64,000 bases of DNA from Bacteriovoracia bacterium (GCA_050246755.1 JBFWVL010000006.1:32001-96000), one strand, 5' to 3'; counted from the stretch's first letter, positions 6,039 to 23,561 are shown. Made by a program: numbers and translations. Notes: generated by a model from the sequence alone, not told the origin.

Positions 6039-7067
6039 TCAGGAAACGATATGCGGTTGAGTATTTAGAGTCCGTTCCTTCATGGAGACAGAAAAATTCC
6101 TCTTCTCTGCCTGTTTCAAAACTTTTTGAATGTCGGTGCTTCCCCATGCCAGTTCAAAAGCTCTTTCGTGAGTGGCAAATCCAGCGATGACCGGATGCTC
6201 CAGGGCTTGGTGAAACTTGAAATCGGACGCTTCCGACCGGAGAAGGTCGAGTCGTTCGTTCCAGGATTGCTCTGCTTCAAGCCAGGATGTTGCTGGGCCA
6301 AACATCCATGCGGGAAATGGCTCATGATGGGCGTAGTAAACCGCGTGAGCACCCGGCTGCACTCGAACTCTTTCTTCACGCCGAAGAAGGATTTGCGAGT
6401 CATTCCAAAATGAGCGGCGCAGGGCATGGTGGGCGGCCCGGCAGGTTTCGGCGATGGCGGATTCGATGCTGTCCTGCAATTCCGTCTTCGTCGAGTGGCC
6501 GGATACTCCGTAACCGGCGGCATTCAGAAAGAGACAAGTCACCGAGGGGCCAAGACCCTCGGTGGAAATCAGGAGCTTCATTTCGGGAAACTCGGACTGC
6601 GACAACTCGTTCCGCACCCAATGCAAGATGGACTGCGGCCATTCGCTCGGTGTGATTTCGAGAAACGGAACCGACAGATACCATTGAGCAAGAACGGCGT
6701 CGCGTTCCACCAGCTCAAGAATCGCTCCGGTTCTTGCTTGCGGAAGGGTTTCGTGCGCCGCCCAGCCATTGCTCGTTCCTAGATTTTCGTGGTTGAGTCC
6801 CTTGTGCCAGCGCATCAGGCTCGCACGTTCGATCAACTCCATGATCGCTTTCGTCATGGCAAGATCCTCTGTCTTGGCCTCTCCGCAAGCCCGAACCTCC
6901 ATGCCATCCAGGGAGGCTTCGATATTGATGATGAACTTGGAGAATCGGAAGCCTGCTGGCCGAGTGCCGCGAGAAACGCGCACGTCTCTAAACCCGAATG
7001 GAAGCGACTCCCACCAGGGAGCGGAGGCACCGCTTTGAGAATCTGGAATGGCGTTATCTAATCGCAT
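6039..7067 (-). CDS. YcaO-family protein (stand-alone, ~342 aa)
   Basis: CGEAKTEDLAMTKAIMELIER and TSNGWAAH...AILELVERDA match YcaO ATP-binding motifs; SAIAE motif; start placed at ATG 7067, downstream of the sigma54 promoter. Confidence 0.85.
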   Translation of the reverse strand: MRLDNAIPDSQSGASAPWWESLPFGFRDVRVSRGTRPAGFRFSKFIINIEASLDGMEVRACGEAKTEDLAMTKAIMELIERASLMRWHKGLNHENLGTSNGWAAHETLPQARTGAILELVERDAVLAQWYLSVPFLEITPSEWPQSILHWVRNELSQSEFPEMKLLISTEGLGPSVTCLFLNAAGYGVSGHSTKTELQDSIESAIAETCRAAHHALRRSFWNDSQILLRREERVRVQPGAHAVYYAHHEPFPAWMFGPATSWLEAEQSWNERLDLLRSEASDFKFHQALEHPVIAGFATHERAFELAWGSTDIQKVLKQAEKRNFSVSMKERTLNTQPHIVS

Positions 7068-7127
7068 GAAATACCAAGCCTTCTTGTTGATAGACCGCCT
7101 TGTTTCAGGCGCTCGGGTTTCCCTATG

Positions 7128-7144
7128 AGCAAGGACGGGGCCAA
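7128..7144 (-). promoter_or_regulatory. Sigma54 (-24/-12) promoter of the YcaO-peptide-SBP-HK-RR operon
   Basis: Minus strand TTGGCCCCGTCCTTGCT = GG-N10-GC, ~60 bp upstream of the ycaO start. Confidence 0.75.
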
Positions 7145-7227
7145 GTCGTAAAAGTGCTGAAAACCTGGGTTTTACGGCGAAATCCTGCATTTTTGTTGAT
7201 CTGCGGGTGCAGTTGGTGGTGCGGAAA

Positions 7228-7515
7228 TTCAGGATTTCTGAATCGGCCTGTGCGATGCGCGGTCGCCTGTAAACAATAACTGCGTGATATGTTTTACGTT
7301 TTCCACACGAAAGGCCCTGGTGCCACAAATTCAGGAACTCTGAATCGACATATAATTTTTATAGGCCGAGTGTCCGCGAGCGCACATGAGGCTGTTGTTT
7401 CGATGACAAATTCAGGATTTCTGAAGGGCTTCAGGTTTCCTGAATGTCATCGCAAGCCGTTGATTTCAAACTCGTAGTTTATTGTTTATCCAATCCGCTA
7501 TTCAGATTTTCTGAA
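7228..7515. promoter_or_regulatory. Five TTCAG-N5-CTGAA palindromes (candidate enhancer/UAS sites)
   Basis: Copies at 7228-7242, 7330-7344, 7411-7425, 7430-7444 and 7501-7515. Confidence 0.8.
7453..7465 (+). promoter_or_regulatory. IHF-consensus site
   Basis: CAAGCCGTTGATT matches YAANNNNTTGATW (reverse of WATCAANNNNTTR). Confidence 0.55.
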
Positions 7516-7891: not shown

Positions 7892-8043
7892 TCTGCCGAA
7901 GCACGAAATCCGCCATCAGAAATTTCTGGATCTGGCTCTGCCGCCAATGGGCCAAAGCCGAGGAAGTTCAGCAGCGAATTGATGCTGAACGCCTCAAGGC
8001 CCAAGAGCGTTACGGCTCCGATTTTCCGTCTCGCTGGATCTAA
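7888..8043 (+). CDS. 51-aa hypothetical protein (not in ORF track)
   Basis: GGGAG RBS, GTG overlapping the upstream TGA; reads MICRSTKSAIRNFWIWLCRQWAKAEEVQQRIDAERLKAQERYGSDFPSRWI. Confidence 0.55.
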   Translation: MICRSTKSAIRNFWIWLCRQWAKAEEVQQRIDAERLKAQERYGSDFPSRWI

Positions 8044-8077
8044 GGAGTCCAAACACAAACGAACGAATGGGGGTTCA

Positions 8078-8314
8078 ATGAAAAATTCCGAAACGACTTT
8101 GCGAAAGAACGACTGCGGGCGCTGGGAGGTCGGCACCCACGAGCTGACTTCGGGAAGTGTCCTTGAAATTCAGATTGACGGCCACTGGATCAGCGGCGTC
8201 ATCGAACACTGGCACGACAACTATTACTGGTTCAGCCGCCGCGACGGTGTTCCCGTCGTGCTTCACTCCGGCATTTATGCTCGTCTCCCAGACTCGAACG
8301 AAAGGAGGTTCTGA
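8078..8314 (+). CDS. DUF5348-like small protein
   Basis: ELTSGSVLEIQIDGHWISGVIEH...YYW resembles DUF5348; start at ATG 8078 after GGGGG. Confidence 0.6.
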   Translation: MKNSETTLRKNDCGRWEVGTHELTSGSVLEIQIDGHWISGVIEHWHDNYYWFSRRDGVPVVLHSGIYARLPDSNERRF

Positions 8315-8376
8315 AAACGTAGTTGAGAATCAATGAGGGGCTTTGAGGGTTCATTGTTTCAAATACGGAGTTAAAT

Positions 8377-8730
8377 TTGTCAGAAAATAAAATCGAACAA
8401 AAGCAGAAATCGGAAAGGCTGAATCTCTACTGGCTGTGCGGCCAGACGGGACGAAAGCATCCCGCCGGGGTCGCATTCTTCAACGAAGAACAAGGCGACT
8501 ATCGGCTGAAGATCGACGTGATGCCCGACGATAAGACGTTTTTCCTGAAAACGATCTCGTCGAGCGATGACGTGACTTACTACCGCGTGGAGGCGGCCGT
8601 GAAAAAGGCCGGGCGCGTGGTCCACAGGGCGGAAGTCGGTTCCGGCTACGCCAAGAAGGAAGATCCCACCATCTACATGGACATCGGCCCGTTCTCGCGG
8701 ACCCTTGTTCTTGAGCAACAACAGGCTTGA
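8377..8730 (+). CDS. Hypothetical protein, possible tandem DUF736-like ssDNA-binding fold
   Basis: GGAG-N6-TTG start; two similar units PAGVAFF..YRLKID and EVGSGYA..IYMDIG. Confidence 0.55.
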   Translation: MSENKIEQKQKSERLNLYWLCGQTGRKHPAGVAFFNEEQGDYRLKIDVMPDDKTFFLKTISSSDDVTYYRVEAAVKKAGRVVHRAEVGSGYAKKEDPTIYMDIGPFSRTLVLEQQQA

Positions 8731-9032
8731 AGCAGGATCGTTTTCTGATGGTTCTCTTCGCGGGCTTTGCCGTTCTTATGGTGCTTTGCCCGGAACTCGC
8801 GCTCGCGCAGTTCTCGGGTGGTGCCCTGGAAAGCAAAGTCAACGGAGTGACGAGCGGGCTTATCAACTTTCTCTTGCCCGCCGCGAGCGTGATCGGACTG
8901 ATTTACAGTGCGATCCTCGCCGCGACCGGCGACGCCTCGGCGAAAGCCAGGATGACCACCATCGCAATCTGTAGCGTGGTGGGAATGCTGGCTCCTCTCA
9001 TCATTCGCTGGCTGCAAGGGATGGTGAACTGA
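8727..9032 (+). CDS. VirB2/TrbC-like pilin
   Basis: Signal ending PELALAQ, then two hydrophobic helices; first gene of the T4SS cluster. Confidence 0.75.
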   Translation: MKQDRFLMVLFAGFAVLMVLCPELALAQFSGGALESKVNGVTSGLINFLLPAASVIGLIYSAILAATGDASAKARMTTIAICSVVGMLAPLIIRWLQGMVN

Positions 9033-9316
9033 TGCTCAAGGCATCGACGGTTCACCGAAATCTGGATGCGAAGTTTAAGATCGGCGGCGTCGAAGCCGCC
9101 GATCTGTTGGCCGTTCTACTCACGGGTGCCGTGATGAATCTGATCTTTGGGCGGCTGTCCATTGGCCCCATTTTCATCTTCGGCATTCCGGGTCTTCTTT
9201 TCTGCGCTCTCTACTTTGGGAAGCGCGGAAAACCGGAGGGCTATCTTATGCACGCACTCAAGTTTTTTATTTCATCCGGCGAACTCAGAGCCGGTGAAAT
9301 CGAGGATTCCGTCTGA
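9032..9316 (+). CDS. VirB3/TraL-like membrane protein
   Basis: 94 aa with two TM helices, between pilin and VirB4; KRGKPEGYL tail. Confidence 0.7.
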   Translation: MLKASTVHRNLDAKFKIGGVEAADLLAVLLTGAVMNLIFGRLSIGPIFIFGIPGLLFCALYFGKRGKPEGYLMHALKFFISSGELRAGEIEDSV

Positions 9317-11742
9317 AGAAATCTCCCATTGCGGGGAAAGTGCCGTTCTTCCGGTTCGACGATCATCTGATGGTCTATCAAGACGGCTCGATGGGCGTCG
9401 GTTTCAGGCTCGGCGGATTCGATAGCAGTTGCGCCTCGGTGGACTCGATCAATGCGTTTTGCCAGAAGATCGAAAACTTTCTCGCCGGGCTCTCCGAGGG
9501 CCTGCGAATCCAGGTTTTCTACCGGCTGACGAACAACGCCTATGACGTGGTGGAGCAACACCGGGCGGTTTCGAGTGACAGTGCGCTTATCTATCAACCG
9601 ATCCGCAGCGCCCGCATCGCGTTTTTTGAAGAGAAGCTGGAATCTGGCCGGTTTTTTATGCCGGAAATCTATCTTTTCGTGCGCAGCCAGCCGCTTCAGC
9701 TCAAAAGGCGCAAGTTTTTCGAGAAGAAAGAGCGGTTTGAAGGGTTCCCGCCGGAGCAGTTTCGCGCCCATCAGGAACGGTTTGCCATTCTCGTCTCGCA
9801 GGTGGAGGCGGCGCTGCGCTCGGCGGCGATTGCGCCCAGCCGTCTGTTAAAGACGGATTGGTTCAATCTCTGCTTCTCGTACTTCAACATGGAGCGGGCC
9901 GAGATCATCGGTTGCCCCAGCTTGAGGGAGCCGACGGACGCGCTCGCTCCGAGCCTTGGTGCGCAACTGGCGCTCACGGACATTTCGGTTTCCGAGAAGC
10001 ACCTGAAGATTGGTGGGCTGTTCTTCCGCGTCGTCACGATGGGGATTTTACCGGAGGGCCAGACGGTCGCCTCCATGATCGAAAGCCTGATGAAACTGCC
10101 ATTCCACTTCTGGATGTCGCAGAACATTCACACGCTGGAACAGCGCAAAGAGATCGAAAAGCTCGAACTCATGCGCCGGATCGCAAGCTCGATGGCCTCG
10201 GGAAGCAAGAACGTCTCCGACATCGAAAGCGAATCGAAGCTGTCGAACCTCGAAGACCTGCTCCGCGAGGTCATGACCGGATCGGAGCGGCTGGTGTCTT
10301 CCGACCTGAACGTGATCTTTTGGGCGGAATCCCAAGAGGAGCTGGAGCAAAAGACGGAAGAAATCTTGCGGGCGTTCCGCGCCACCGGCCAGGCCGAAGG
10401 TCTGGTCGAGACGTTCGGCCTGGAGGACGCCTTTTTTAAGGCCGCGCCCAGCGTGTGCGAAGGGTTCCGCCATAAGCGCATGAAGACGAGCAATTGCGCT
10501 CATCTGATGCCCTTATACGCGGCCTGGATGGGCAATAAGCGGCCGGTGGTGCTGCTCACGAACCGCGAGGGAGCGCCCTTTGCCATCGACCCGTTCGCAC
10601 CGGAATTACCCAACTGGAACGGTCTGATTTTCGGCGGTAGCGGCTCAGGGAAGTCTTACTCGATTTCCCAGATGATGCTCCAGTTTTCCGGCCAGAAGTA
10701 TGGCGGCAAGCCGCCGAAGATCGTGTGGATCGACAACGGGGCCTCCAGCGAAAAGCTGATCGAGGTCATGGACGGCGAGTTCATCGACCTGAACCTCAAT
10801 TCGGGCATCCGCCTGAATGTGTTCGACCTTGAGGCCGGAGAAGCGAAGCCCACCGCCACCAAGATCAAACTGATCCTGGGGTGCCTTGAGCTGATCCTGA
10901 AGGACGACGACAAGGTGGGGCTCCCGAAGCGGGACAAGGGCCTGCTCGAAGAGGCCATTTTTTCCTGCTACCGCAAAACCGGTGAGCGCATTCCGCAGCT
11001 CTCCGATCTGAGGGAGATCCTGCGCGAGCATCCGGTGACGGATATGCGCAAATACGCCGACATCCTGTTCTCGTGGACTGGAGAAACGGCGTTCGGTCGG
11101 ATGCTCGATGGCCCCAGCAACGTGAAGCTCACCAAGGACTTGGTGTCCATCGAGATCAAGGGGCTGGAGAACTACCGGGATCTGAAGGACATCTTTCTGC
11201 TGCTGCTCACTTCGTACATCAAGGACGAAGCGGCCAGCGACTTGGCCCGCCCTTATCTGCTGATCGTGGATGAAGCACAACGGCTGTTCAAGTCGGGCTC
11301 TCCGATGGGAAGGGAGTTCGCCATAGATTCCTTTCGCGTTTTTCGTAAGTACAACGCCGGAATCTGGTGCATCTCGCAGAACTATAAAGATTTTTTGTCG
11401 GACCCGGATCTGGCAGATTCTCTCATGCCTAACACCACGTTCGTTTTCATCCTGCGGCAGCGGAAGATCGACTGGAACGACTTCAAGGAAACCTTCGACT
11501 TCGACGAAGCGGTTGTGGAGGCGGCGAAAAGTCTGGAGATCGTCAAGCGCAAGTTCTCCGAGTTTTTGCTGATCCAGGACGAAAATATCGCAGTTTTGCG
11601 TCTGGAATCTGACCCACTCAGTTACCGCATCTGTACCACCGACGGAAACGAAAAATCGGAGGAGAAGGCTCTTCGGGAAAGATATCCCGACCGCCCTCTC
11701 GTGGAAATTTTAAGTGAGCTTGCTCAAGGAGATTCGCATTAA
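9313..11742 (+). CDS. virB4: VirB4/TraC-like conjugation ATPase
   Basis: GGSGSGKS Walker A, LLIVDEAQ Walker B, RKYNAGIWCISQ. Start may be CTG 9313 (GAGGA-N6) or GTG 9340. Confidence 0.9.
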   Translation: MKKSPIAGKVPFFRFDDHLMVYQDGSMGVGFRLGGFDSSCASVDSINAFCQKIENFLAGLSEGLRIQVFYRLTNNAYDVVEQHRAVSSDSALIYQPIRSARIAFFEEKLESGRFFMPEIYLFVRSQPLQLKRRKFFEKKERFEGFPPEQFRAHQERFAILVSQVEAALRSAAIAPSRLLKTDWFNLCFSYFNMERAEIIGCPSLREPTDALAPSLGAQLALTDISVSEKHLKIGGLFFRVVTMGILPEGQTVASMIESLMKLPFHFWMSQNIHTLEQRKEIEKLELMRRIASSMASGSKNVSDIESESKLSNLEDLLREVMTGSERLVSSDLNVIFWAESQEELEQKTEEILRAFRATGQAEGLVETFGLEDAFFKAAPSVCEGFRHKRMKTSNCAHLMPLYAAWMGNKRPVVLLTNREGAPFAIDPFAPELPNWNGLIFGGSGSGKSYSISQMMLQFSGQKYGGKPPKIVWIDNGASSEKLIEVMDGEFIDLNLNSGIRLNVFDLEAGEAKPTATKIKLILGCLELILKDDDKVGLPKRDKGLLEEAIFSCYRKTGERIPQLSDLREILREHPVTDMRKYADILFSWTGETAFGRMLDGPSNVKLTKDLVSIEIKGLENYRDLKDIFLLLLTSYIKDEAASDLARPYLLIVDEAQRLFKSGSPMGREFAIDSFRVFRKYNAGIWCISQNYKDFLSDPDLADSLMPNTTFVFILRQRKIDWNDFKETFDFDEAVVEAAKSLEIVKRKFSEFLLIQDENIAVLRLESDPLSYRICTTDGNEKSEEKALRERYPDRPLVEILSELAQGDSH

Positions 11743-12439
11743 ACGAACGAAGACTTGCCTGGTGGCGGCCCTCATTATGGCCTGCGCGTTGCGCCCAGCG
11801 CCCGCGCTGGCGTTCACCGATGGTTCGGGATGGGCTGCGGTTGGATACCTCATTAAAATTCTGGAGGAAAACTACCGGCGGTATGTGCAGCTCAAGGCCA
11901 TGATCGACACGGCGAACGGTCACTATGACTATATCCGGGCGCTCAATCGCGGCCTGGACAATTCCATCGGTCTTTTGGAGGCGCTGCCCATCAAGGACGA
12001 GAAGGTTCTGGCGGAACTGAAGAACTTCAAGGAAGCGGTCGCCCGCGTGGAACTGCTCTATGGAAAAATTCCGCAGAGCCCGGATGAAGCCCTGCATCTC
12101 CTGCACGATCAATCGGTGGCGGAAAGCCTGCGGATGGCAAACTCCTTCAAGGATTTCTCCGACACGCAGGAGAAAAATTCGCTGTTGATCGCCGCCCAAG
12201 CGCGGGAGGCATCGCCCAAGGGCGCAGCCCGTATGCAGGCCGAGACAAGCGCGGAGATCCTGCGCACTCTCTCGCAGTTGATTCGCCTTAACACGCAGAT
12301 GCTCAAGCTCCAAAGCGAGCAGATCGCAATGGCGAATAAGTCCGCGAAAGACGAAGTGGCGGGATTTCAGAAGATCAACCAAGACCTTGGAAGCGGATTT
12401 TCCAAGTTCAAGCCGGACATGAAATTCATCGTTTTCTAA
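11738..12439 (+). CDS. VirB5/TrbJ-like secreted helical protein
   Basis: Signal peptide KRTKTCLVAALIMACALRPAPALA; coiled-coil character; position between VirB4 and VirB6. Start ATT 11738 (AAGGAG-N6) or GTG 11714. Confidence 0.65.
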   Translation: MKRTKTCLVAALIMACALRPAPALAFTDGSGWAAVGYLIKILEENYRRYVQLKAMIDTANGHYDYIRALNRGLDNSIGLLEALPIKDEKVLAELKNFKEAVARVELLYGKIPQSPDEALHLLHDQSVAESLRMANSFKDFSDTQEKNSLLIAAQAREASPKGAARMQAETSAEILRTLSQLIRLNTQMLKLQSEQIAMANKSAKDEVAGFQKINQDLGSGFSKFKPDMKFIVF

Positions 12440-13387
12440 ATGTTTGAATATCTAGGAAGCGTTGGCGCGGAACTCCACGCGCAGATGGTTCAAATGTACT
12501 GGATTCTTTTGGTTCCATTCGTCGTGTTCCTGTTCGTGTTGGAGGTCATCAAGGACGACAACCCGAATTTGCGCGATTTGTTCCGCCGGATCGTGTTTTC
12601 GGTGCTGCTGCTGCTCACCTTTGACTGGACCCTTCAGACGATTGCCGTGGTTGGCGACGCCGTGACGGAGAAAATCAACGGACTGCAACGACTCTCCGAG
12701 GTTCTTCAGAATCTCGGGCCGAACTACTCCGGCAAGGATAGCTGGTTCAATGTGCGGGAAACGATTCTCTATGTCTTCAGCGTCGCTGCCTACCTGATCG
12801 CCTATCTTGGCTTTTTCGTGGCAACGGCGTTGACCCATTTCGTCTGGACGATCTTGTATGTGGCGGCACCCTTGATGATTCTCATGTACGTCAGTCGCCA
12901 TACGGAGCGCGTGACCATGAGTCTCTACAAGGGATTGGTGCAGGTCGTGATCTGGAAAATTTTGTGGTCGATTCTCGGCGTATTGCTGCTCAAGCTCGCC
13001 ATGCAGCCGGAGGTCACGGGGCTTGAGGATTATATCATGTCCATCGTGGTGAATCTTTGCATCGGCTTCTCGATGCTGTTCATCCCGATTGCCACGAGAT
13101 CCTTGATTTCGGATGGGATGTCGTCGGTTGCAAGCTCGCTTGCGGCGGTTCCGGCGATTGCCGCCGGGGGCGCGGTCAAGATGGCGGCGGCCAAGTACGG
13201 AGGAAAAATCGCGGGTGCCGCCGCGTTCGCGGCCAAGCCCGCCACGAACCCCATCGCGGGGCGCGTGGAGATGATGAAGGACCGACTGCAACCACGATTC
13301 GAGCAGGCAAAGAAGGCTTACGGAGCCATCGGGCTCCCGCAGGAAATTCTCAAAAAAAGAGCCAGAAAAGAAAAGAGGAATAAGTGA
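12440..13387 (+). CDS. VirB6/TrbL-like polytopic membrane protein
   Basis: Multiple TM helices and an Ala/Gly-rich C-terminal tail. Confidence 0.75.
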   Translation: MFEYLGSVGAELHAQMVQMYWILLVPFVVFLFVLEVIKDDNPNLRDLFRRIVFSVLLLLTFDWTLQTIAVVGDAVTEKINGLQRLSEVLQNLGPNYSGKDSWFNVRETILYVFSVAAYLIAYLGFFVATALTHFVWTILYVAAPLMILMYVSRHTERVTMSLYKGLVQVVIWKILWSILGVLLLKLAMQPEVTGLEDYIMSIVVNLCIGFSMLFIPIATRSLISDGMSSVASSLAAVPAIAAGGAVKMAAAKYGGKIAGAAAFAAKPATNPIAGRVEMMKDRLQPRFEQAKKAYGAIGLPQEILKKRARKEKRNK

Positions 13388-13977
13388 ACGAAAAATCTAA
13401 GAACACGATCCCGAATATCTGGACCGCGCAAGAGAACCTGATCCATTTTTATCGGATTCTCTCTGCGGGTCTGGGCGGGCTCGCCGTCATTTTGCTGGTG
13501 GTGGCCGTCGCATTCGGTTTTCGAGATCCGATTGTCGTCGTGAAATCGGATGATGCGCAGGAGTTTTTTGTGAGCCGCCGAGCGCCGGTTTCCATTGAAA
13601 AGAAGGATGTCGAAAATATCACGCGGCGTTTTCTCGATGCGCTGTATGTCTGGCCGGAGTTTAACGGCCAGGCGCTCGCCAAAGAGATCGCGCCTTATGC
13701 TGAAGAAGCCTTGGTGGGAAAAATCGTCGAAACGCAGGTGCTCAAGTACGGAAAGGACTTCAAGGGCAAGAAGCTCGCTCAGGAGCTGTCCTTCGTCAAT
13801 GTGACTGTTCAGGAGGATCGCGTGGTCTGTAACTTCGACCGCATCCTGAAGATCGAAGGGATACCGCTGGTCATTCCAACCGAAGTCACGCTGTCGATGC
13901 TGCGCGGAAGTAGCACACGGGAAAATCCGATGGGCGTCTTCGTCTCTGGTATTTTAGAAAATGAAGGCGCGAAGTAA
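13384..13977 (+). CDS. VirB8/TraE-K-like bitopic protein
   Basis: Single N-terminal TM; C-terminal RENPMGVFV motif typical of the VirB8 family. Confidence 0.75.
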   Translation: MNEKSKNTIPNIWTAQENLIHFYRILSAGLGGLAVILLVVAVAFGFRDPIVVVKSDDAQEFFVSRRAPVSIEKKDVENITRRFLDALYVWPEFNGQALAKEIAPYAEEALVGKIVETQVLKYGKDFKGKKLAQELSFVNVTVQEDRVVCNFDRILKIEGIPLVIPTEVTLSMLRGSSTRENPMGVFVSGILENEGAK

Positions 13978-14713
13978 GTTGTGGGGTTTTGTCGGACTGT
14001 TGATGCTGATTTCGATTGAAGTCGGAGCAATGGTCCCGCCGGGTGACAAACGAACTATCCTCACCTCCGGGGAGAAGGTTTACCCGATCCAATATCGGCT
14101 CGGCACGAGTACGATTTTGTATTTCGGACTGCGCCCCGAGACGGTGATCTGCGGGAACAAAAACTATTTCAACATCGAGAAGATCAAGGAGGGAATCACG
14201 ATTCAACCTCTGTCGAATTTCTCCACTAACCTGACGGTTCTCGCTCAGGGTCGGCGCTATTTGTTTTTCCTGACCCCCGCGAGCGGTCGCCCCGATGGGT
14301 TCGTGGAAGTGAAATGGGTTCCACCCGGTCAGGCCAGATCCGTCAAAGCGTTGGCGAAGCATGACGGCGAAGTGACCCGAGAGCTCGGACAGAAGACCAA
14401 GATCGGCACCGCCGTTGAATTTTCCATTTTGCGCGAGAAGGCATTGGACAAAGGGAAGCGCCGGATCTTCGAGATCGAGATGAAAAACCTCGGCGGGAAA
14501 GCCATTCCCGCAAACCAGTTTGAGGTAGTGGCCTCTATCGCGGGCGTCCCTCTCGCCCGCCAGGTTGTCGTCTGGGAGGGCGACGACCTGAAGGAGAAAG
14601 GCAAGCTCCGGGGCCGCGTGATCGTCTCGGGCCACGATGGAAAGCCTCTGAGTCTCGTTGTCGGCTATCTCGGCAAGAGCACCAAGCTCATCATCAAGGG
14701 GGGCCGCAATTAA
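13961..14713 (+). CDS. VirB9/TrbG-like secreted protein
   Basis: Signal peptide; VYPIQYRLGTSTILYF and STNLTV...RRYLF motifs. Confidence 0.75.
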   Translation: MKARSKLWGFVGLLMLISIEVGAMVPPGDKRTILTSGEKVYPIQYRLGTSTILYFGLRPETVICGNKNYFNIEKIKEGITIQPLSNFSTNLTVLAQGRRYLFFLTPASGRPDGFVEVKWVPPGQARSVKALAKHDGEVTRELGQKTKIGTAVEFSILREKALDKGKRRIFEIEMKNLGGKAIPANQFEVVASIAGVPLARQVVVWEGDDLKEKGKLRGRVIVSGHDGKPLSLVVGYLGKSTKLIIKGGRN

Positions 14714-15638
14714 GTGGTGGGGAACGTGTCGGGAGTGGCTGAAGCGGATTTTTCTCCAGGCTAGCGGCGGCAAAACCATTGTCGCCCTTCAGCGCGTGGG
14801 TGTCGTGGCTGGCGGCGGGCTTTTGCTGCTCGCTGCTGGCATGGCCTGGTTCGGCCCCGCAGAGGATCGGACGTTCTATTTGCAGACGACGCAGACGCAG
14901 AATCGCGGCGAGGAAAATTCCCCAAGCAGCAGAACGGCGGTCAGCGGGCCTGTCGCGGCGCTTTTTGGCAATAGCGAGAGGAAAAAGGAATCAGAGGCGC
15001 GGGCCGCGATGGAGCAAAAACGAAAGCGCGTCGTTATCAAGTATTACGCGCCTCAACTCGTAGGCCAATCGAACAAGGTGCCGAAGGCCATTCGCTCGGG
15101 TGCCAAGCTGGTTGGCTTTCTCCTGAAAGCCATCGACACCCGTGCGCCTTCGCCGGTTCATGTACGCATCGCCCAGGGCGGCGAAGTGAATGGCGTCGAG
15201 ATCGAGAAGGGCTCGGTTTTGACCGGCCAGTATTCCTACGCCGGTTCCGGCGAGCTGGTTTTCGTGTCGTTCTCGCGGCTGGATACGCCCGAGGGCGAGC
15301 CCAAGAAAATCCAGGCGCAGGCCCTTGATAGCGGCACCTACACCGCCGGGATTTCCGGCGAGGTGTATTCCGACGCCGGGCTCAAGACGGCCGCGAGCCT
15401 CGGGCTGACCATGTTCGGCGGTATGGCCGATGTCCTGACGGAGAAGGAATCGCTCGGATTCTCGCAAAACGGTGTGCAGGCCAAATCCACCATGCGGAAT
15501 GCACTCTTGCAGGGGCTTTCCCGTTCAGCACAGGAGCAGACAGGCCGGATGCAGAACGAGATCAACTCGGCGAAGGACTATGTGCTCATTCCCGAGGGCA
15601 AGGAAATGATTATCGAACTGACTGAGGATTTCAAATAG
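14709..15638 (+). CDS. VirB10/TrbI/TraM-like protein
   Basis: N-terminal TM; IEKGSVLTG, AGISGEV and IPEGKEMIIEL motifs. Start ATT 14709 (AAGGGGGG-N5) or TTG 14658. Confidence 0.75.
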   Translation: MKWWGTCREWLKRIFLQASGGKTIVALQRVGVVAGGGLLLLAAGMAWFGPAEDRTFYLQTTQTQNRGEENSPSSRTAVSGPVAALFGNSERKKESEARAAMEQKRKRVVIKYYAPQLVGQSNKVPKAIRSGAKLVGFLLKAIDTRAPSPVHVRIAQGGEVNGVEIEKGSVLTGQYSYAGSGELVFVSFSRLDTPEGEPKKIQAQALDSGTYTAGISGEVYSDAGLKTAASLGLTMFGGMADVLTEKESLGFSQNGVQAKSTMRNALLQGLSRSAQEQTGRMQNEINSAKDYVLIPEGKEMIIELTEDFK

Positions 15639-17173
15639 AGAGCAAAAAGCATGATGGAAAATCAGACGGTTTTACGGCTTTAGGAAAAGTGATCGGCGGA
15701 ACGGCCCGCTTTTTTGGTTCGGTGATCTGGACCGGGATTCGCTACGGCGTCCATTGGAAACCGAGAGTGTTTCTCTCTTGGGGCATTTACCTTGTGTGGA
15801 TCGCCCTCGTCATCTTCGGGCCGAGGTGGAACTTGAGCGTTCTGCTTCAGCTCGCGGGCTCAATCGTAGGATGGGGCGGATTCGGCGCGTGGATGGGGGC
15901 GCACGTTCCGCGCCTGGTGCAGCTCTTTGTGTTTTTCGTTCTGCCCCTGTGCGGCTGGCTGTTCGCGCACGGAATCCGAACGTGGATCGGCTTGAAAAAG
16001 TATCAGCGGGCCATCGACCACTTGGGGCTGAAGACGCCCACGGGGGTCACGCCGAAAGTCGCTCGGGTCGTCGAACTTGAGAACAAGCAGCGCCGGGTTC
16101 TCGTTCACGCCGTTGGGCTCGATGTGGCTCAGTTTCGGGATAAGAAAGGCGTTTTGGAATCGAGCTTCAACGCCATCGTGCAGGAAGTTCGCGTGACACC
16201 AGCAAATCGCCAGATGGTCGAGATCCTGGTTTCCGACCGGGAGCTGCCGACGCTCGTGCGCTTCGACTCTCACGCGGAAGCCTTACGCAAGCCCTACACG
16301 TTCCTCGTGGGCGAAACGGTGGATGGTTTTATCACCGCCGATCTGTGTGAGATCCACCACCTACTGATCGGGGGCGCGACAGGAGGAGGAAAAAGCGTGT
16401 TCTTCAAGCAGGCGTTGGTTGGAATCCTGAAAAGCTCCGACCACGTTCAGCTCTATCTTTTGGACCTGAAACGCGGAGTTGAGTTTCGGGTTTTCGGCAC
16501 ACTCAAGAACGTGCGGGTTTCCAAGGACGAGGCCACGGCGATTTCCATGCTCCAGCGGGTTGTTGAGGAAATGGAGCGCCGGTTCCGCATTCTGGAGGAA
16601 AAGGGATTCACCGAGATCGTGCCGGAAAGGGATGGGTTGGATCGAATCGTGGTCGCGGTGGACGAGGCTTCCGTGCTGTTCACCGTCGGCAAGATGTCAA
16701 AGGAAAGCAAGGCCGCTGCCATAGGTGCCCGCGAGCTGACGGACAAGATCGCCAAGCTCGGCCGCGCCGCTGGCATTCACTTGATCCTGGCGACGCAAAA
16801 GGTTGTGAAGGAAACCATCGACACCCGTGTTCAGACGAACATCAACGCGAAAATGTGTTTTCGCGTGAACACCATCGCAAGCTCAATGACCGTGCTGGGT
16901 AATAAGAAGGCCGCAGACCTCCCCGACATCAAAGGGCGCGGCATTTGGTCCGTTGGAAGCAACGATCTGGTCGTTCAGGTTCCATATCTGGACGGCGACG
17001 AGATCAACGAGGAAGTCTTGGGCCTGGCTGCCAAGTTCAACGGTGAAGCATCGCCGCTGAAGCAAAAAATGCTTCAAACGATGGCGCCGAAGAAGAAGCG
17101 GTCCAAGAGCAACACCATGAGCCAGGAGGAGATCGAACAATTCGAGGCCGAGGAGAATCAGGATGTCGATTGA
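15635..17173 (+). CDS. FtsK/SpoIIIE-type (TcpA-like) coupling ATPase
   Basis: N-terminal TMs; HLLIGGATGGGKS, LDLKRGVEF, VAVDEA, LGRAAGIHLILATQ. Start ATA 15635 (GAGGA-N6) or GTG 15689. Confidence 0.9.
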   Translation: MESKKHDGKSDGFTALGKVIGGTARFFGSVIWTGIRYGVHWKPRVFLSWGIYLVWIALVIFGPRWNLSVLLQLAGSIVGWGGFGAWMGAHVPRLVQLFVFFVLPLCGWLFAHGIRTWIGLKKYQRAIDHLGLKTPTGVTPKVARVVELENKQRRVLVHAVGLDVAQFRDKKGVLESSFNAIVQEVRVTPANRQMVEILVSDRELPTLVRFDSHAEALRKPYTFLVGETVDGFITADLCEIHHLLIGGATGGGKSVFFKQALVGILKSSDHVQLYLLDLKRGVEFRVFGTLKNVRVSKDEATAISMLQRVVEEMERRFRILEEKGFTEIVPERDGLDRIVVAVDEASVLFTVGKMSKESKAAAIGARELTDKIAKLGRAAGIHLILATQKVVKETIDTRVQTNINAKMCFRVNTIASSMTVLGNKKAADLPDIKGRGIWSVGSNDLVVQVPYLDGDEINEEVLGLAAKFNGEASPLKQKMLQTMAPKKKRSKSNTMSQEEIEQFEAEENQDVD

Positions 17174-17903
17174 TATTCAGCCACGGGACCGGCGGATCAT
17201 GCGCCATGTGTTCGTTCATCGTGTTGCGACTTACGATCAGATTCGCAGGAAGTTTTTCACTAAGAACTTTGAAACGGTGGCGAGAAATCGCATTCGTAAG
17301 CTGGTTAAGCACGGATATTTCCGCTCGTTCGGCGCGGAACATGGTGGCGTCCTGATCCGCGCCTTGAGCCTTACGGAAAAATCGTGGCCGCTCATTTCGG
17401 AAGGATGGGGCTTTGACGTGGATAATCCGCACTTCCGCAGTGAATCCATCGAGCATGATTTTCGCTTGGCCGAGGTGGTCTTGAAGTTTGAAAGGCTCCA
17501 GTCCTTTGTGCGGTTCCTGTCGGAGAACCTTCTACAATCCTCATCGGCACTCGCGGCGGACCCGATTTTTCGGGATGCGGTCAACCTGCAAGCGGACGGC
17601 GTTCTCGCGCTCAAAGAAAAGGATGGCAGCTCTATTCTGTACGCGGTGGAGTATGAGATCAGCAAGAAAGCGCCGGATCGCTATATCCGAAAGCTCGAAG
17701 GCTACTATCAGGCCGGCGGCATTGATGGCGTTTTGTACGTCTGCGGGAATCAGGAGATCGCCGCCGCCGTTGCGCAGGCGGATCGTAAGATTCGCACGGG
17801 ACACGAATCCATCGTGTTCCTCGCCGGGGAATCCAGTGTTCTCAAGTCGGAAGGCAAGATCATCTTCAAGGGAGTCAGTGGTGGCGGCATAGGGCTTATT
17901 TGA
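17163..17903 (+). CDS. Replication-relaxation (Replic_Relax/MOBC-like) relaxase
   Basis: N-terminal wHTH (QPRDRRIM...RIRKLVKHGY); IEHD; QADG...AVEYEISKK (D..ExE) and RYIRKLEGY. Confidence 0.8.
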   Translation: MSIDIQPRDRRIMRHVFVHRVATYDQIRRKFFTKNFETVARNRIRKLVKHGYFRSFGAEHGGVLIRALSLTEKSWPLISEGWGFDVDNPHFRSESIEHDFRLAEVVLKFERLQSFVRFLSENLLQSSSALAADPIFRDAVNLQADGVLALKEKDGSSILYAVEYEISKKAPDRYIRKLEGYYQAGGIDGVLYVCGNQEIAAAVAQADRKIRTGHESIVFLAGESSVLKSEGKIIFKGVSGGGIGLI

Positions 17904-17907
17904 GGGG

Positions 17908-18101
17908 TCAGTCGGACGACTAAGTTGCCTCAGTTTTTTCTCAGTCGCTCGACTGAGGCATTTCAAGCGTAAGTGACTGATATGACGGAAATTCGGTTGC
18001 CGGTTTTTATGGGGGGTCACGGCCATACGGAAATTTGCTTCTGAGACGATTTTGCCGGGAGGCAAGGTCGTCGAAGGAGCAAGAAGTGACGAGGCCGTGA
18101 C
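17908..18101. other. Candidate oriT region with nested inverted repeats
   Basis: CTCAGTCG-CT-CGACTGAG (17940-17957); TGCCTCAGT/ACTGAGGCA (17926-17960); TCAGTCG-GA-CGACTAA (17908-17923); GTCACGGCC/GGCCGTGAC (18016/18093); directly downstream of the relaxase. Confidence 0.5.
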
Positions 18102-18159
18102 GGAGCGGCGGCGGGCCGGAGGAAGGATAGAGCGTATTAAATAACAAGAGGAGCTACAT

Positions 18160-18570
18160 ATAAGAGCAAAACTTTTTGTCGGATTTGTTGCAGTTCTAAC
18201 GATGAATGGATGTTCTACGCTGCGCGAGTCGCTGATTCTCGGCGCAGGAACCGGTGCGGTCGTCGGCGGCATCGCTGGCGGTCAGCGGCCCGGTGATCGT
18301 GGCGAGAACGCGATCATGGGTGCTGTGATCGGCGGTGTTGCCGCCGGTCTTGCGAGCTACGCCATCCACGGGGCACTGGAGAGGCGCGACGCGAACGTGC
18401 GCCGCGAGACGCTGATGAACCTGGAGCATTACGATGTTCTTGGCTTCGAGGGCCTGAACGCCAACCCCGGCGGCGACCGTAGCGGCAAGTGCTTCACCAC
18501 GCAGGAGGTTGACGGCCGGCTCATGTCGATTCCCTGCGACCTCGTGAATGGATCGGATGAGGCCAAGTGA
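18160..18570 (+). CDS. Glycine-zipper lipoprotein
   Basis: GAGGAG-N6-ATA start gives signal RAKLFVGFVAVLTMNG-C with a lipobox; GAGTGAVVGGIAGG and GAVIGGVAAG zippers. Confidence 0.75.
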   Translation: MRAKLFVGFVAVLTMNGCSTLRESLILGAGTGAVVGGIAGGQRPGDRGENAIMGAVIGGVAAGLASYAIHGALERRDANVRRETLMNLEHYDVLGFEGLNANPGGDRSGKCFTTQEVDGRLMSIPCDLVNGSDEAK

Positions 18571-18959
18571 GGAACGATCCCATGCAGCCGGGTGCGAATA
18601 AAGAATTCCTGCGCGTTGCCTTGGATAAACAAGCGGCTTTAGCTTTCGCGCAGATGGCAAACCGCCTGAAGGCCCAGAACCCGCACGTCCGGGTTCAGCC
18701 TTCGGCCTTCGTGAGTTTTCTGGTATCGGATTTCTTCACTACTTATTTTGAAAAGGATCTTGGGATTCTGGTGGCCGAGTTCTTCGACTCGAAGAGCTAC
18801 CACGAGGCGCAGTTGCGGCAAGCTAAGGCCCAGGGCGATTTTGAAAGGGTCATGTCGGAATCCCTGGTCACGATTCGGAAGATCAAGGCCAGGGCGCGGC
18901 GTAAAAGCGGCCAGAAGCGGAAGGCCAAGCCGTCGCCCACCTCCACGAGCGCCGAGTGA
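18567..18959 (+). CDS. Hypothetical protein with basic C-terminus
   Basis: GTGA overlap with the upstream stop; GAGG RBS. Confidence 0.6.
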   Translation: MRNDPMQPGANKEFLRVALDKQAALAFAQMANRLKAQNPHVRVQPSAFVSFLVSDFFTTYFEKDLGILVAEFFDSKSYHEAQLRQAKAQGDFERVMSESLVTIRKIKARARRKSGQKRKAKPSPTSTSAE

Positions 18960-19028
18960 AGCAATATAATCGTGCGCGGGAACGAAAAAATCTCTTGAAT
19001 AGTCTTCTAAAAGAGACTATATTGGCAA

Positions 19029-19274
19029 GTGATGGATCTGGACGAGTTCACGCTGGCAGACAGATTGAAGGAACAGCTTCTGACCTCCATCGAGAAGACG
19101 ATGGAGGATGCGAATATCAGCCAAGGGGAAGTTGCTCGGAGAATCGGCGCTCTCCGGCGGAACGTGAATCAGATCATGGGTCGGAAGAAAAACGCGTCCC
19201 TCGACTACATATTGAAAATGGCCGAGAGCATCGGCCTCGATGTGGAGATGAGGGTCAAGAAACCGAGGGCTTGA
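19029..19274 (+). CDS. XRE-family HTH regulator
   Basis: ISQGEVARRIG..RRNVNQIM...ASLDYILKMAESIG. Confidence 0.85.
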   Translation: MMDLDEFTLADRLKEQLLTSIEKTMEDANISQGEVARRIGALRRNVNQIMGRKKNASLDYILKMAESIGLDVEMRVKKPRA

Positions 19275-19360
19275 AGAAGGCCAGCGGTGACTTCGCCGAT
19301 TGCGGCGGGTGATTCATCCGATCCAAAATTGATGATGGTTTTTCGACCCCACAAGGGTCA

Positions 19361-19537
19361 TTGCTCTTTGACAATTCATGGTTAGATACGAAAGAGGCAG
19401 CGGTGTACTTGCGGACCTCTCCGAAGCAGATTCGGAGCTGGGTCTATCAAGGGAAAATCAGGGCCTACAAACTTCTCGGACGTAGTTACCGATTCAAAAA
19501 ACAGGATCTCGACTCCTTGCTGAAAGGGGTCGGATAA
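19361..19537 (+). CDS. xis: Excisionase (HTH_17/MerR-like), not in ORF track
   Basis: Reads LLFDNSWLDTKEAAVYLRTSPKQIRSWVYQGKIRAYKLLGRSYRFKKQDLDSLLKGVG; TAA overlaps the integrase ATG; start uncertain. Confidence 0.85.
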   Translation: MLFDNSWLDTKEAAVYLRTSPKQIRSWVYQGKIRAYKLLGRSYRFKKQDLDSLLKGVG

Positions 19538-20688
19538 TGTCGATTACGTCATATAAGAAAGAAGTTTTGCCAGGAGTGACCAAGAGATTCTTTTTGGTTT
19601 TGGCCGAGGGAATCAACAAGTACACCGGAAAGAGAGTCCAAAAGAAACGCAGGGGCATCACGTCGGAGGTAAAAGCCGAACGTGTTTACCGCGAGTTGTG
19701 GAGTCTATGCCGGGAAGAGCGGCCCGATGGTCCCGCGATCAAAACGTGGGGCGAGTTGAAGGCCGCTTATCTCGACTACGTTCAGAAGAACATCCGAAGC
19801 GAAACCAATAAACATGGTTTTAGCCCGAAGACGTTCGAGAAGAAAAAGAGCCGGTTCAATCATTTGAATGACTGGCACGATCTCCACCTCGCCCTCATCA
19901 ATCCGCAGCGGTTGCGGGAGCGGTTAGATACCCTGGAAGCCCAGGGTATCGCCACTCGTGAGTTGACCAGGGATATTCAGAAGGAAATCCGGTGCGTCTT
20001 CAGCTATGCGGTTGATCGAGGGGCACTCAGCGCGAACCCGCTGGCCGAGATGAAGAACAGGCCGGTTCCGAAAAAGCGAAAGCAGGCTTTGAATCACGAG
20101 GAGGCCAACAAGCTCCTCTCCGAAGCCCGCCACCGGAACCATCCCTATTTCTTCATCTGGTTGTTGTCGATTGCGCTGGGCCTCCGCCGGAGCGAGCTTG
20201 CCGGACTGAAATGGCTGGACATTGATTTTGAAAATCGTCTGGCCCATATCAGGCGGCAGGATATTCCGAGGGAGGGCATCGTCGATGATCTGAAGAACCA
20301 TAAGGAGCGGGTCGTTGCGATCCCGGCCTTCGTTATCCCGACTCTCAAGGAGTACAAGCTACGGTCGAAGACGGATTTTGTGATTGAGGTGGACTGCAAG
20401 CAGTGGAAAAGCGGCAACCAAGCCGCCGTGTTACGGGAGTTTTGCCGGGAAATCGGCATCAAGGAAGTGACGCACCACCGACTGCGGGCCACGCATATCA
20501 CGCTGGCTTTGGTCGATGGCATCCCCTTGGGGATCGTGAAAGAAAACGTGGGGCACTCGAAGCTGAGTACCACGGACGAATACTTCAGTTCGTCCGGTAT
20601 CCAGATGCGAGGCCAAACGGATGGACTGCGAATCAAAGTGCCAACGGGAGTGGAAGCGGAAGTGATGCCGCTCAGGGCTGCAAAATGA
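19537..20688 (+). CDS. int: Tyrosine recombinase/integrase
   Basis: GLRRSEL (R), LKNHKER (K), HRLRATH (HxxR), VGHSK (H), TTDEY (Y). Confidence 0.95.
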   Translation: MSITSYKKEVLPGVTKRFFLVLAEGINKYTGKRVQKKRRGITSEVKAERVYRELWSLCREERPDGPAIKTWGELKAAYLDYVQKNIRSETNKHGFSPKTFEKKKSRFNHLNDWHDLHLALINPQRLRERLDTLEAQGIATRELTRDIQKEIRCVFSYAVDRGALSANPLAEMKNRPVPKKRKQALNHEEANKLLSEARHRNHPYFFIWLLSIALGLRRSELAGLKWLDIDFENRLAHIRRQDIPREGIVDDLKNHKERVVAIPAFVIPTLKEYKLRSKTDFVIEVDCKQWKSGNQAAVLREFCREIGIKEVTHHRLRATHITLALVDGIPLGIVKENVGHSKLSTTDEYFSSSGIQMRGQTDGLRIKVPTGVEAEVMPLRAAK

Positions 20689-21021
20689 ACCCCTTCCATT
20701 CCCTGCCAGGTCGTGCTAACTATTTGAATTCATTGGCCGGGGATTACCCCGACCAATTTATTCTTCACGCAGTTAGCACAATCCCAAAATGGGCATCGTT
20801 CTAAGTAGTTAAATTCTCTCAGAGTCCATATTCGGTTTTTTGAGAATGTCACTCTACGTCCCCTGAGAACCCTGTAGTTCCCTGCCAAACCAATTGAGTA
20901 AAGTGCCGAAAAGAATGCTCCGCAAGGCAATCAATGGCGGAGGAAATCTAACCTGTGCGCTATCGACATCCACTTTAAAAAAATCATTTAGTTGCGGAGA
21001 GCCCACCAGCGCGAGGACGAC

Positions 21022-21801
21022 TCAATCTAATTTGCTCAGCATCCGATCCACCGACCGACTCATCTGCTTTAAAATGAAATCAGGTGCAATTCGGCTCATC
21101 ATTTTAAGCTGGTTGCTCTGGCCCGGCCGAATTTCGAATCGATCGTTCATCATGCCGTTGACCGCGACCTTCACCATATCTTCGACCTTCATGATCGAAA
21201 TGCCCTTCCTATCTTCTTCAGACAAGTCTCCGAGAAGCTCGGTTTGAGTGGCCGGCGGTGCAAGTTCAAAGACTTTCACTTTGGTGTTTTTGAGCTGGAC
21301 CCTCAGGGAAAGAGTATACGAGTGAAGTCCCGCTTTAGTGGCGCAGTAGACCGGAGAGACGGGGAGTGGAACAAACGCGAGACCTGAGGTCACGTTAACA
21401 ATTGCCGCCGCAGCTTTTGCTTTAAGGTGCGGCAGGAACTGTTTCACCATCCGAATCGGGCCATTCAAATTGATTTCAATTTCTTGCGTAAGATCAGTCA
21501 ATGTTCCGGTGGTGTCGTGAACGTTAATGGTCTTCATAATGCCGGCATTGTTGATCAGTATATTTAAATCAGGAAATTGTTTCGTGACTTGTTCGTACAA
21601 TGCAACAACCGCTTTAGGATCGCTCACGTCACTTTGAATTGTATGAATTTTTGGGAAACTTTTTTTAGTGCGCTCGAGCTTTTGCAAATCACGTCCAGTG
21701 ACAATGATGGTATTGTCGAGGTCACTCAGTTGCCTGATAAATTCAAAGCCAATTCCACTGGTGCCGCCTGTGATTAAAATCGTATTCTTTGTCATTTTCA
21801 T
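21022..21801 (-). CDS. SDR oxidoreductase (DltE-like)
   Basis: TGGTSGIG, NNAG, YCATK. Confidence 0.9.
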   Translation of the reverse strand: MKMTKNTILITGGTSGIGFEFIRQLSDLDNTIIVTGRDLQKLERTKKSFPKIHTIQSDVSDPKAVVALYEQVTKQFPDLNILINNAGIMKTINVHDTTGTLTDLTQEIEINLNGPIRMVKQFLPHLKAKAAAAIVNVTSGLAFVPLPVSPVYCATKAGLHSYTLSLRVQLKNTKVKVFELAPPATQTELLGDLSEEDRKGISIMKVEDMVKVAVNGMMNDRFEIRPGQSNQLKMMSRIAPDFILKQMSRSVDRMLSKLD

Positions 21802-21859
21802 AAAACACCTCCGAAAGATAATTTTGTCCGAGCTTGAGTCCGGGTTCAGCGGCCCAATC

Positions 21860-22792: not shown

Positions 22793-23457
22793 TTCATACT
22801 CCTTGGTTGATCGTTCTTTTGTGTGACGAACAAGCCGGACTGAACATTCCGCCATGCCGATTCAAGGGCCAAAAGGCTGTTGAATCCATCTTTTCCAATC
22901 AAAAAATTCAAACGACCTTCAATGAGGAGCATCGCCAGGCCATGGATCGACGACCACATCTGCACCGAGATGGCGTTGATGTCCTCTCTATTTTTATCCG
23001 GAAAAATTTCCGAAACCGACAAATGCAAATTTTCAAAGCATGCTTTGCTGGCTGATTTCAGCTCTGGATTGTCAGCATCCAATCTCGATCCAAACATGAC
23101 TTTGTAGAGCGCCGGATTGCTTTTTGCGAATCGTAAATACTCAACAGAAGCAACTGAACATGGATTTTCGGCGTCTTTGGGCATGCTCAGAAATTTGGCC
23201 CGTAGCTTTGAAGACAAAGATTGAAATCCTTCAACGGCAAGACTGTTCAAGAGCCCATTGGCATCCTGAAAGTGATGGGCGGGAGCGCTGGGGGAAACCC
23301 CTGCACGGGCAGCGCACTTACGCAGCGTGAACCCCTCGTATCCAACTTCCTCAAGAAGCTCAGAAGCCGCGACCATCAGGGCGCGCTTTAAATCGCCGTG
23401 ATGATAGTCCGTTGTGCGAGTCGTTGATTTCCTCTTTTTCTCTTTCTTTGCAACCAT
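22789..23457 (-). CDS. TetR/AcrR family regulator (WHG-type C-terminus)
   Basis: YHHGDLK...FTLRKCAARAGVSPSAPAHHF; WSSIHG. Confidence 0.9.
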   Translation of the reverse strand: MVAKKEKKRKSTTRTTDYHHGDLKRALMVAASELLEEVGYEGFTLRKCAARAGVSPSAPAHHFQDANGLLNSLAVEGFQSLSSKLRAKFLSMPKDAENPCSVASVEYLRFAKSNPALYKVMFGSRLDADNPELKSASKACFENLHLSVSEIFPDKNREDINAISVQMWSSIHGLAMLLIEGRLNFLIGKDGFNSLLALESAWRNVQSGLFVTQKNDQPRSMK

Positions 23458-23502
23458 TTAGAGCTCCTTTCCCTGGTTTGGTTTGAGTCAGCCTAACATG
23501 CT

Positions 23503-23552: not shown

Positions 23553-23561
23553 TGGAGCCTA

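Follow-up and report, generated by a model that had tools for sequence, protein, structure and literature searches.

The stretch of Bacteriovoracia bacterium DNA analysed here (64,000 nucleotides, GCA_050246755.1 JBFWVL010000006.1:32001-96000, hereafter the window) carries a compact integrative conjugative element (ICE; 7979..20688, + strand). In its transfer region, encoding a type IV secretion system (T4SS), five genes possess a strong Shine-Dalgarno (SD) sequence directly ahead of an in-frame ATT, ATA or CTG codon. Comparison with related elements indicates that such near-cognate codons are very probably the true translation starts across the whole element family. The trait appears to be long-conserved, gene-specific and family-wide, and strongest at the virB5-like, virB10 and lipoprotein genes. 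Among the window genes, a near-cognate start is assigned with most confidence to the lipoprotein gene and with least to virB4. Taken together with the mechanism of coupled, weak initiation proposed below, this interpretation is likely.

Re-reading of the sequence confirmed the five codons, SD sequences, spacings, reading frames and four stop overlaps reported in the first-pass annotation. At the virB3/virB4 junction (9302..9316, +), the SD sequence GAGGA (9302-9306) and a six-base spacer are followed by CTG 9313-9315, which overlaps the virB3 stop codon TGA (9314-9316) in the form CTGA (-4 overlap). The virB4/virB5-like junction (11726..11742, +) consists of AAGGAG (11726-11731), six bases and ATT 11738-11740, overlapping the virB4 stop codon TAA (11740-11742) as ATTAA (-5 overlap). 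The same ATTAA arrangement (-5) is found at the virB9/virB10 junction (14696..14713, +), where AAGGGGGG (14696-14703) precedes ATT 14709-14711 by five bases and the virB9 stop codon TAA occupies 14711-14713. At the virB10/FtsK junction (15624..15638, +), GAGGA (15624-15628) lies six bases ahead of ATA 15635-15637, and the overlap with the virB10 stop codon TAG (15636-15638) reads ATAG (-4). The overlapped stop codons are genuine, as they close open frames of 113 (virB3), 814 (virB4), 251 (virB9) and 328 (virB10) codons, and the SD sequence of each of the four following genes lies inside the upstream gene. The lipoprotein start (18148..18162, +), with GAGGAG (18148-18153), six bases and ATA 18160-18162, shares no stop codon with a preceding gene; no upstream gene ends there. 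In-frame canonical codons (ATG, GTG or TTG) in the vicinity are GTG 9340, GTG 11714, TTG 14658, GTG 15689 and ATG 18202. An SD match of at least four bases at proper spacing accompanies all five near-cognate candidates and none of these five canonical alternatives.

Related elements were collected from genomes and metagenomes. A genome scan with one genome per species yielded 16 loci, 13 of them with a syntenic operon (57-98% VirB4 identity), and a metagenome scan with VirB4 alignment yielded 49 loci of 45-95% identity, most of the longer ones with the same gene order. All loci were grouped into 48 clusters at 90% VirB4 identity, and starts were called by fixed rules in one representative of each. 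For the virB5-like gene, ATT or ATA was called in 23 of 31 clusters, always behind a strong SD sequence; in six of these, canonical codons are absent between the in-frame stop and position +30. Among the genome lineages, this gene starts with ATT or ATA in eight and with ATG, GTG or TTG in three. The virB10 gene starts with ATT, ATA or CTG in 16 of 27 clusters, eight of which are free of canonical codons up to +30. Near-cognate starts were called in five of 37 clusters for virB4 (CTGA in four, ATAA in one) and in four to five of 24 for the FtsK-type ATPase gene. The CTGA junction of virB4 recurs in clusters L059, L063 and L064, where a canonical codon is absent up to +30, and ATAA is found in L012/L013; ATAA or ATAG at the FtsK junction also occurs in L012, L061 and L064. 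Four automatic virB4 calls at the stop codon (L007, L070, L079 and L087) were discounted, since they lack an SD sequence and are preceded by an ATG at a distance of a few codons.

In the remaining clusters, ATG, GTG or TTG stands at or near the homologous position. Thus, CTG 9313 aligns exactly with the ATG of L002, and ATA 15635 aligns with ATG in L002, L004 and L005. Near-cognate starts of orthologues in the genome loci are accompanied by an SD sequence. The junctions are of the types ATTAA, ATTAG and ATTGA (-5) or ATAA, ATAG and CTGA (-4), with a few short gaps or longer overlaps. Orthologue alignment had been suggested in the first-pass annotation as a check on the five codons, and its outcome favours them: the orthologues have either a canonical codon or a conserved near-cognate one (ATT, ATA or CTG) there, in many cases with no canonical alternative.

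A deviating arrangement was seen in one clade (L012, L013, L059, L061 and L063), where the virB5-like gene has an SD-led ATA at a distance of 26 bases 5' of the stop codon of virB4. Here, a 29-base overlap replaces the start on the stop, and the combination of SD sequence and ATA survives the loss of the stop overlap.

Of 23 clusters, 14 have an ATA or ATT start of the lipoprotein gene as the sole SD-led candidate 5' of the hydrophobic core; ten of the 14 have no plausible canonical alternative. In the window, ATG, GTG and TTG are all absent between the in-frame stop codon at 18142-18144 and ATG 18202, and the latter lies three codons ahead of the lipobox cysteine codon (18211-18213). This agrees with the earlier proposal that ATA 18160 is needed to give the lipoprotein its signal peptide. 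Three more VirB4 loci are present in the same genome, outside the window, at C6:153441-155825, C5:229111-231492 and C1:1314782-1317052, with 59%, 58% and 34% identity to the window VirB4. The two closer copies have the full gene order and an SD-led ATA start of the lipoprotein gene, without a usable canonical codon. Each of them also carries ATTAG at the junction of the VirB8-position gene and virB9. Public gene calls contain only a 122-amino-acid form of the window lipoprotein, from ATG 18202, so that the database protein lacks a signal peptide. Its 90% cluster has 12 members, ten of 122 amino acids, and the three named members are annotated as hypothetical protein.

Some further features of the lipoprotein start were recorded. 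The near-cognate codons show a nearly constant context: the next bases are AA or AG after ATT, and A or G after ATA, also at sites that are not the end of a gene. An out-of-frame stop codon thus overlaps the lipoprotein starts too, with one exception (L003). Canonical lipoprotein starts are also followed by A in five of nine cases, and a preference for an A-rich second codon may suffice to explain this context. A leader frame coupled to the lipoprotein start was considered and rejected, as the upstream frame is inconsistent across eight loci.

Further support for initiation at near-cognate codons was obtained from relatives in which no other start is at hand. As a measure of such forced cases, the aligned columns 5' of the first canonical codon were counted. 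This codon is reached only at column 61 in virB4 of L012, with 33 identities upstream, at column 55 in virB5 of L007, at column 44 in the lipoprotein gene of L013, and at columns 36 and 38 in virB10 of L003 and L004, respectively. With the first canonical codon so deep inside the protein, only the near-cognate start yields the conserved protein in those relatives. In the window, the lipoprotein gene and the FtsK-type gene are without a usable canonical start for the conserved N-terminus; for virB4, the virB5-like gene and virB10, such a lack holds in relatives only (4, 6 and 8 clusters, respectively, up to +30). Fourfold-degenerate sites of virB4 are 16-41% identical among eight lineages and are thus saturated. 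As silent sites have turned over completely, the ATT and ATA codons have been maintained.

The near-cognate starts are restricted to certain genes of the operon. Application of the same rules to five other junctions of the same operons gave 12 near-cognate calls out of 145, compared to 62 out of 142 at the flagged genes. The individual control counts were 1/38 for virB3, 2/29 for virB6, 4/28 for the VirB8-position gene, 1/28 for virB9 and 4/22 for the relaxase gene. An automatic ATTGA call at the relaxase gene of the window was spurious, this gene having an SD-led ATG at 17163. They are also restricted to the element family. When all same-strand junctions of the genome were classified by one rule set, counting near-cognate codons at the stop and SD-led near-cognate codons (classes B and D), ten of 38 (26%) in the four related elements were near-cognate versus 35 of 1438 (2.4%) elsewhere (Fisher p 6e-8). 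Among starts located at a stop codon, a strong SD sequence is found at 34 of 42 near-cognate and 22 of 43 canonical ones (p 0.006), which fits a compensation for the weak codon. The use of TTG and GTG by several neighbouring genes had been mentioned in the first-pass annotation, and the element as a whole is poor in ATG: only five of 16 element genes start with ATG (the GTG and TTG starts of small genes being partly checked) versus 694 of 921 (75%) unambiguous host starts, and the others use TTG, GTG, CTG, ATT or ATA.

We propose that pairing between the SD and anti-SD sequences would bring the weak codon (ATT, ATA or CTG) into the ribosomal P site, where the ordinary initiator fMet-tRNA would read it with one mismatch. 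At the four overlaps, the terminating ribosome, already on the site, would restart by termination-reinitiation coupling; the P-site shift needed would be +1 base at ATTAA and +2 bases at ATAA or CTGA. These four junctions would act like the known kind of coupling junction and probably form a variant of it; the canonical overlap types, -4 NTGA or -1 TRRTG with an NTG start, do not match them. The lipoprotein gene would use the same design of SD sequence and ATA without any upstream gene, which requires that ribosomes can also initiate de novo at ATA. By analogy with E. coli, where such starts are inefficient, selected transfer components of the costly element would be made in small amounts, under the influence of upstream translation and of initiation factor 3 (IF3).

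In the first-pass annotation, a translational throttle or a coupling mechanism had been put forward. The coupling part is backed by the four conserved starts on an upstream stop codon and by the SD sequences inside the upstream genes. A throttle tied to the translation state of the host is what we infer from the stronger SD sequences at weak codons and the ATG-poor element, and it is also favoured by the uncoupled lipoprotein start with its frequent ATA or ATT. In line with such a role, raised IF3 was described to inhibit both initiation at non-canonical codons and re-initiation (PMC2268962, in excerpt), and excerpts on Tn916 and TnSmu1 describe ICE activation as harmful to host cells (PMC9632896, PMC10098952). 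It is conceivable, though speculative, that the near-cognate codons form a gate by which host IF3 activity and translational state would set the output of the VirB5-position protein, VirB10 and the lipoprotein, and in this element also of VirB4 and the coupling ATPase. The machine would then be built only in certain states of the predator, and AUUAA would represent a genuine third class of coupling junction, hitherto taken to be almost absent.

As the main alternative, the near-cognate starts may be real and yet have no regulatory meaning, having arisen by drift under the weak selection that a low demand for transfer proteins would impose, followed by lock-in. We consider this explanation doubtful, although several observations agree with it. 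Most cases lie on an upstream stop codon. At such tightly coupled sites the start codon itself would be of minor importance, and ATGA could drift to CTGA or, by one transition that leaves start and stop in place, to ATAA. A change from ATTAA to ATGAA destroys the upstream stop codon, so that lock-in is possible. ATC, which cannot overlap a stop codon, was never called at a stop, although the call rule excluded ATC there, and the 14 near-cognate lipoprotein calls comprise only ATA and ATT. In addition, clusters alternate between canonical and near-cognate codons at each of the five genes. However, the lipoprotein gene is free of the stop constraint and a single transition would convert its ATA to ATG, yet ATA or ATT prevails in 14 of the 23 clusters and a near-cognate start is present in three elements of one genome. 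Nor would drift readily account for the difference between flagged and control junctions within the same operons, for strong SD sequences paired with weak codons, or for an element that is poor in ATG as a whole. The lipoprotein start and the gene specificity thus argue against a purely neutral origin but do not exclude it.

It is very unlikely that GTG 9340, GTG 11714, TTG 14658, GTG 15689 and ATG 18202 are the true starts and that the SD sequences stand before near-cognate codons by coincidence. A standard listing of open reading frames does return these codons, the public lipoprotein entry begins at one of them, and in virB4 the canonical start would cost only nine poorly conserved residues. 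None of them has an SD sequence, however, and many relatives lack the alternative altogether. Initiation at ATG 18202 would leave three residues ahead of the lipobox cysteine, and GTG 15689 would cut off N-terminal residues that can be aligned with those encoded from ATG in L002, L004 and L005.

Even less likely is a peculiarity of the host as a whole, such as a relaxed start choice, an odd initiator tRNA or a different genetic code. The initiator tRNA of the host is canonical: it has the C1:A72 mismatch, and its anticodon stem contains three G-C pairs. In-frame SD-led ATT (4.8%), ATC (4.8%) and CTG (3.9%) were at background genome-wide (median of non-canonical codons 4.8%), and a looser scan of SD by codon likewise revealed no enrichment of these three; ATA was marginally high (6.3%, with a 95th percentile of 6.2%), which would agree with a host-wide effect. 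Comparison of 191 chromosomal orthologue pairs with the relative G006 revealed no convincing non-canonical start on the side of this genome and a single possible one, a CTG, on the side of the relative. A first pass, run with composition statistics off, had comprised 189 pairs, of which many were flagged and 17 examined; in these, the upstream extensions were weak or stemmed from overlapping conserved frames or translated SD boxes, and the canonical starts aligned. In the second pass, 27 of the 191 pairs were flagged and 23 examined, the other four having at most two identities upstream. The low share of near-cognate junctions outside the elements also contradicts a host-wide cause.

The one host gene that could be cited for such a cause is infC, encoding IF3, which appears to start at an SD-led CTG (C4:123947, outside the window) and served as a positive control. 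To our knowledge, bacterial infC genes generally have unusual start codons. Of ten loci compared (among them L045 and L048-L054), six of the same family and one of the same order keep the CTG, one is ambiguous and two distant ones use ATG. Given this conserved CTG, it is plausible that the host has the known kind of IF3 feedback. The CTG is followed by AAA AAT, and a proline-rich N-terminal extension precedes the conserved IF3 core.

Least likely of all is that separate initiation does not take place and the overlaps are frameshift fusions or assembly errors: SD-like boxes near a stop codon are able to promote frameshifts (prfB and dnaX are examples), which counts in favour of fusion, but the signal peptides of the virB5-like protein and the lipoprotein have to be at a free N-terminus, a conserved slippery sequence is absent and the bases 5' of ATT vary among lineages, the lipoprotein gene has no upstream reading frame, and identical codons occur in the independent assemblies L001 and L081 (95-98% VirB4 identity).

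Several points weigh against genuine and functionally weak near-cognate starts. The start assignment is based on sequence, and the start calls per cluster are heuristic; a canonical alternative is possible in three to four lipoprotein calls, in the L012-type virB5 calls and in two virB10 calls. In the window, virB4, the virB5-like gene and virB10 keep the in-frame alternatives GTG 9340, GTG 11714 and TTG 14658, the case against these being made by the relatives and the missing SD sequences. As the clusters are related, the p-values are overstated. The chromosomal control covers 400 kb (20 stretches) of one relative, and genes with poorly conserved N-termini would escape it. The throttle and IF3 steps of the mechanism are borrowed from knowledge of E. 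coli, and the persistence of ATTAA may partly reflect lock-in instead of selection for weakness.

The element was delimited by Pfam and NCBIfam matches, its left border being uncertain. VirB4 ATPase, VirB10/TrbI, coupling ATPase, integrase and excisionase were all recognised, and the system is a conjugative T4SS on an ICE. The genome (3.55 Mb, ten contigs) belongs to the Bdellovibrionota, with the window corresponding to C6:32001-96000, and the closest genome loci are from Bdellovibrionaceae, Pseudobdellovibrionaceae, Bacteriovoracaceae and Bdellovibrionales. Gene order from 8347 to ~19300 is kept in nine genome loci and in ~35 loci overall. A DUF5348 gene at the left end of the ICE is first in the gene order. 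The conserved block is opened by a gene of no family, from TTG 8377 (8377-8730, 117 amino acids), which is present in nine of the nine genome loci compared. It is followed on the + strand by a VirB2-like gene (8727; TrbC/VirB2 score 24, cut-off 27.9) and a VirB3-like gene (9032; DUF3487 19.1, cut-off 27.8). The VirB4/TraC-like ATPase, read from CTG 9313 (9313..11742, +), exceeds the cut-offs of PF19044 (59.4 bits vs 25.8), PF11130 (35.9 vs 28.1) and PF03135 (34.3 vs 21); its NCBIfam matches to TIGR02746 (3.8e-74) and TIGR00929 (8.1e-60) are both under the curated cut-offs. A secreted protein in VirB5 position (11738..12439, +), read from ATT, has a predicted standard signal peptide and no family match in Pfam and NCBIfam, and is named by gene order alone. 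VirB6-like (12440, +; TrbL 21.4, cut-off 25.9) and VirB9-like (13961, +; CagX 23.2, cut-off 34.2) genes flank a gene assigned to the VirB8 position (13384, +) by gene order alone and without a family match.

The VirB10/TrbI-like gene, from ATT 14709 (14709..15638, +), matches PF03743 TrbI with 48.6 bits (cut-off 35), and the FtsK/SpoIIIE-type ATPase from ATA (15635..17173, +), the presumed coupling protein, matches PF01580 with 81.2 bits (cut-off 24). A Replic_Relax-like protein (17163, +; SD-led ATG, score 23.5, cut-off 25.3) is the relaxase candidate. The glycine-zipper lipoprotein from ATA (18160..18570, +), a possible VirB7 analogue, has sub-cut-off matches to PF13441 (4e-05) and NF053611 (2.3e-05). 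To its right lie a gene of no assigned function (GTG 18567), a helix-turn-helix (HTH) protein gene (19029), an excisionase-type HTH_17 gene (19361; PF12728 57.1, cut-off 27) and a tyrosine integrase gene (19537-20688; PF00589 66.9, cut-off 27.1). No translation-related family was found among the scanned element genes, three of which have no family at all, and no tRNA genes were found within the window.

The 256 bases between the Replic_Relax and lipoprotein genes contain, shortly after the former, an inverted repeat with arms of ~9 bases (17926-17960), which may act as a terminator or belong to an origin of transfer. Left of the element, a YcaO-domain gene (6039-7328, - strand) and a family-5 solute-binding protein gene (4231-5721, - strand) were observed; they are not kept beside related elements. 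Right of the integrase, the region 20000-32000 has a G+C content of 0.48-0.51, compared to 0.54-0.58 in the transfer region, and holds large reading frames (e.g. 24182-27253); this region may represent cargo or another island.

These starts matter for annotation as well as for translation. Gene finders that accept only ATG, GTG and TTG mis-start such genes, with adverse effects on the prediction of protein localisation, on models of protein families and on the recognition of conjugation systems in Bdellovibrionota. In 34 well-annotated genomes, annotated starts were reported as 81.8% ATG, 13.8% GTG and 4.35% TTG (10.1101/063800, in excerpt), so that any other codons together make up a very small remainder. 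The excerpted text of PMC10666635 quotes an efficiency of ATT in E. coli of ~0.3% of ATG, names ATT as the sole start permitting a -5 overlap, gives such overlaps as more than 1000-fold rarer than -4 ones, and attributes them to annotation error or rare use of ATT. The element family now offers natural, conserved cases of repeated ATT and ATA starts in one operon and of -5 ATTAA overlaps, thought to be very rare, and the rules of re-initiation on weak codons become directly testable. It also suggests a purely translational means by which an element could limit the amount of a costly machine or keep its parts in stoichiometric balance. A literature search of a limited library returned no report of near-cognate starts in conjugation operons or in Bdellovibrio.

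Compared to known VirB/Trb T4SS operons, the element has the same order VirB2-B3-B4-B5-B6-B8-B9-B10, overlapping genes and an integrase. It differs in that most components are too divergent for the family cut-offs, the coupling ATPase is of the FtsK type and not of the VirD4 type, and the relaxase candidate is Replic_Relax-like. Near-cognate starts as such are established. In E. coli infC, IF3 discriminates against the AUU start and output falls at high IF3 activity. As in the element, this near-cognate codon stands behind a good SD sequence, but infC is one gene regulating itself, whereas here structural secretion genes of a mobile element are concerned. No IF3-like gene was found among the scanned element genes, and thus, unlike in infC, there is no feedback loop. 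The AUU start of E. coli pcnB, encoding poly(A) polymerase I, keeps a potentially harmful protein scarce; pcnB is a single chromosomal gene without coupling, whereas here several genes per operon are affected and the feature is conserved family-wide. Coupling by overlap of stop and start codons is likewise established for ATGA (-4) and TGATG (-1) junctions, which, as described in excerpts of PMC10666635 and PMC6728339, share with the element the start on the stop codon, the SD sequence in the upstream gene, subunits of one complex as products, and conservation. In the element, ATA or CTG takes the place of ATG in the -4 overlap, and ATT forms -5 overlaps (ATTAA, ATTAG, ATTGA). This -5 class is very rare according to the excerpted PMC10666635, whereas here it is conserved at two junctions over many clusters. 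What is new is the systematic combination of both features in one operon, its conservation past the saturation of silent sites, and the recurrent -5 ATT overlap.

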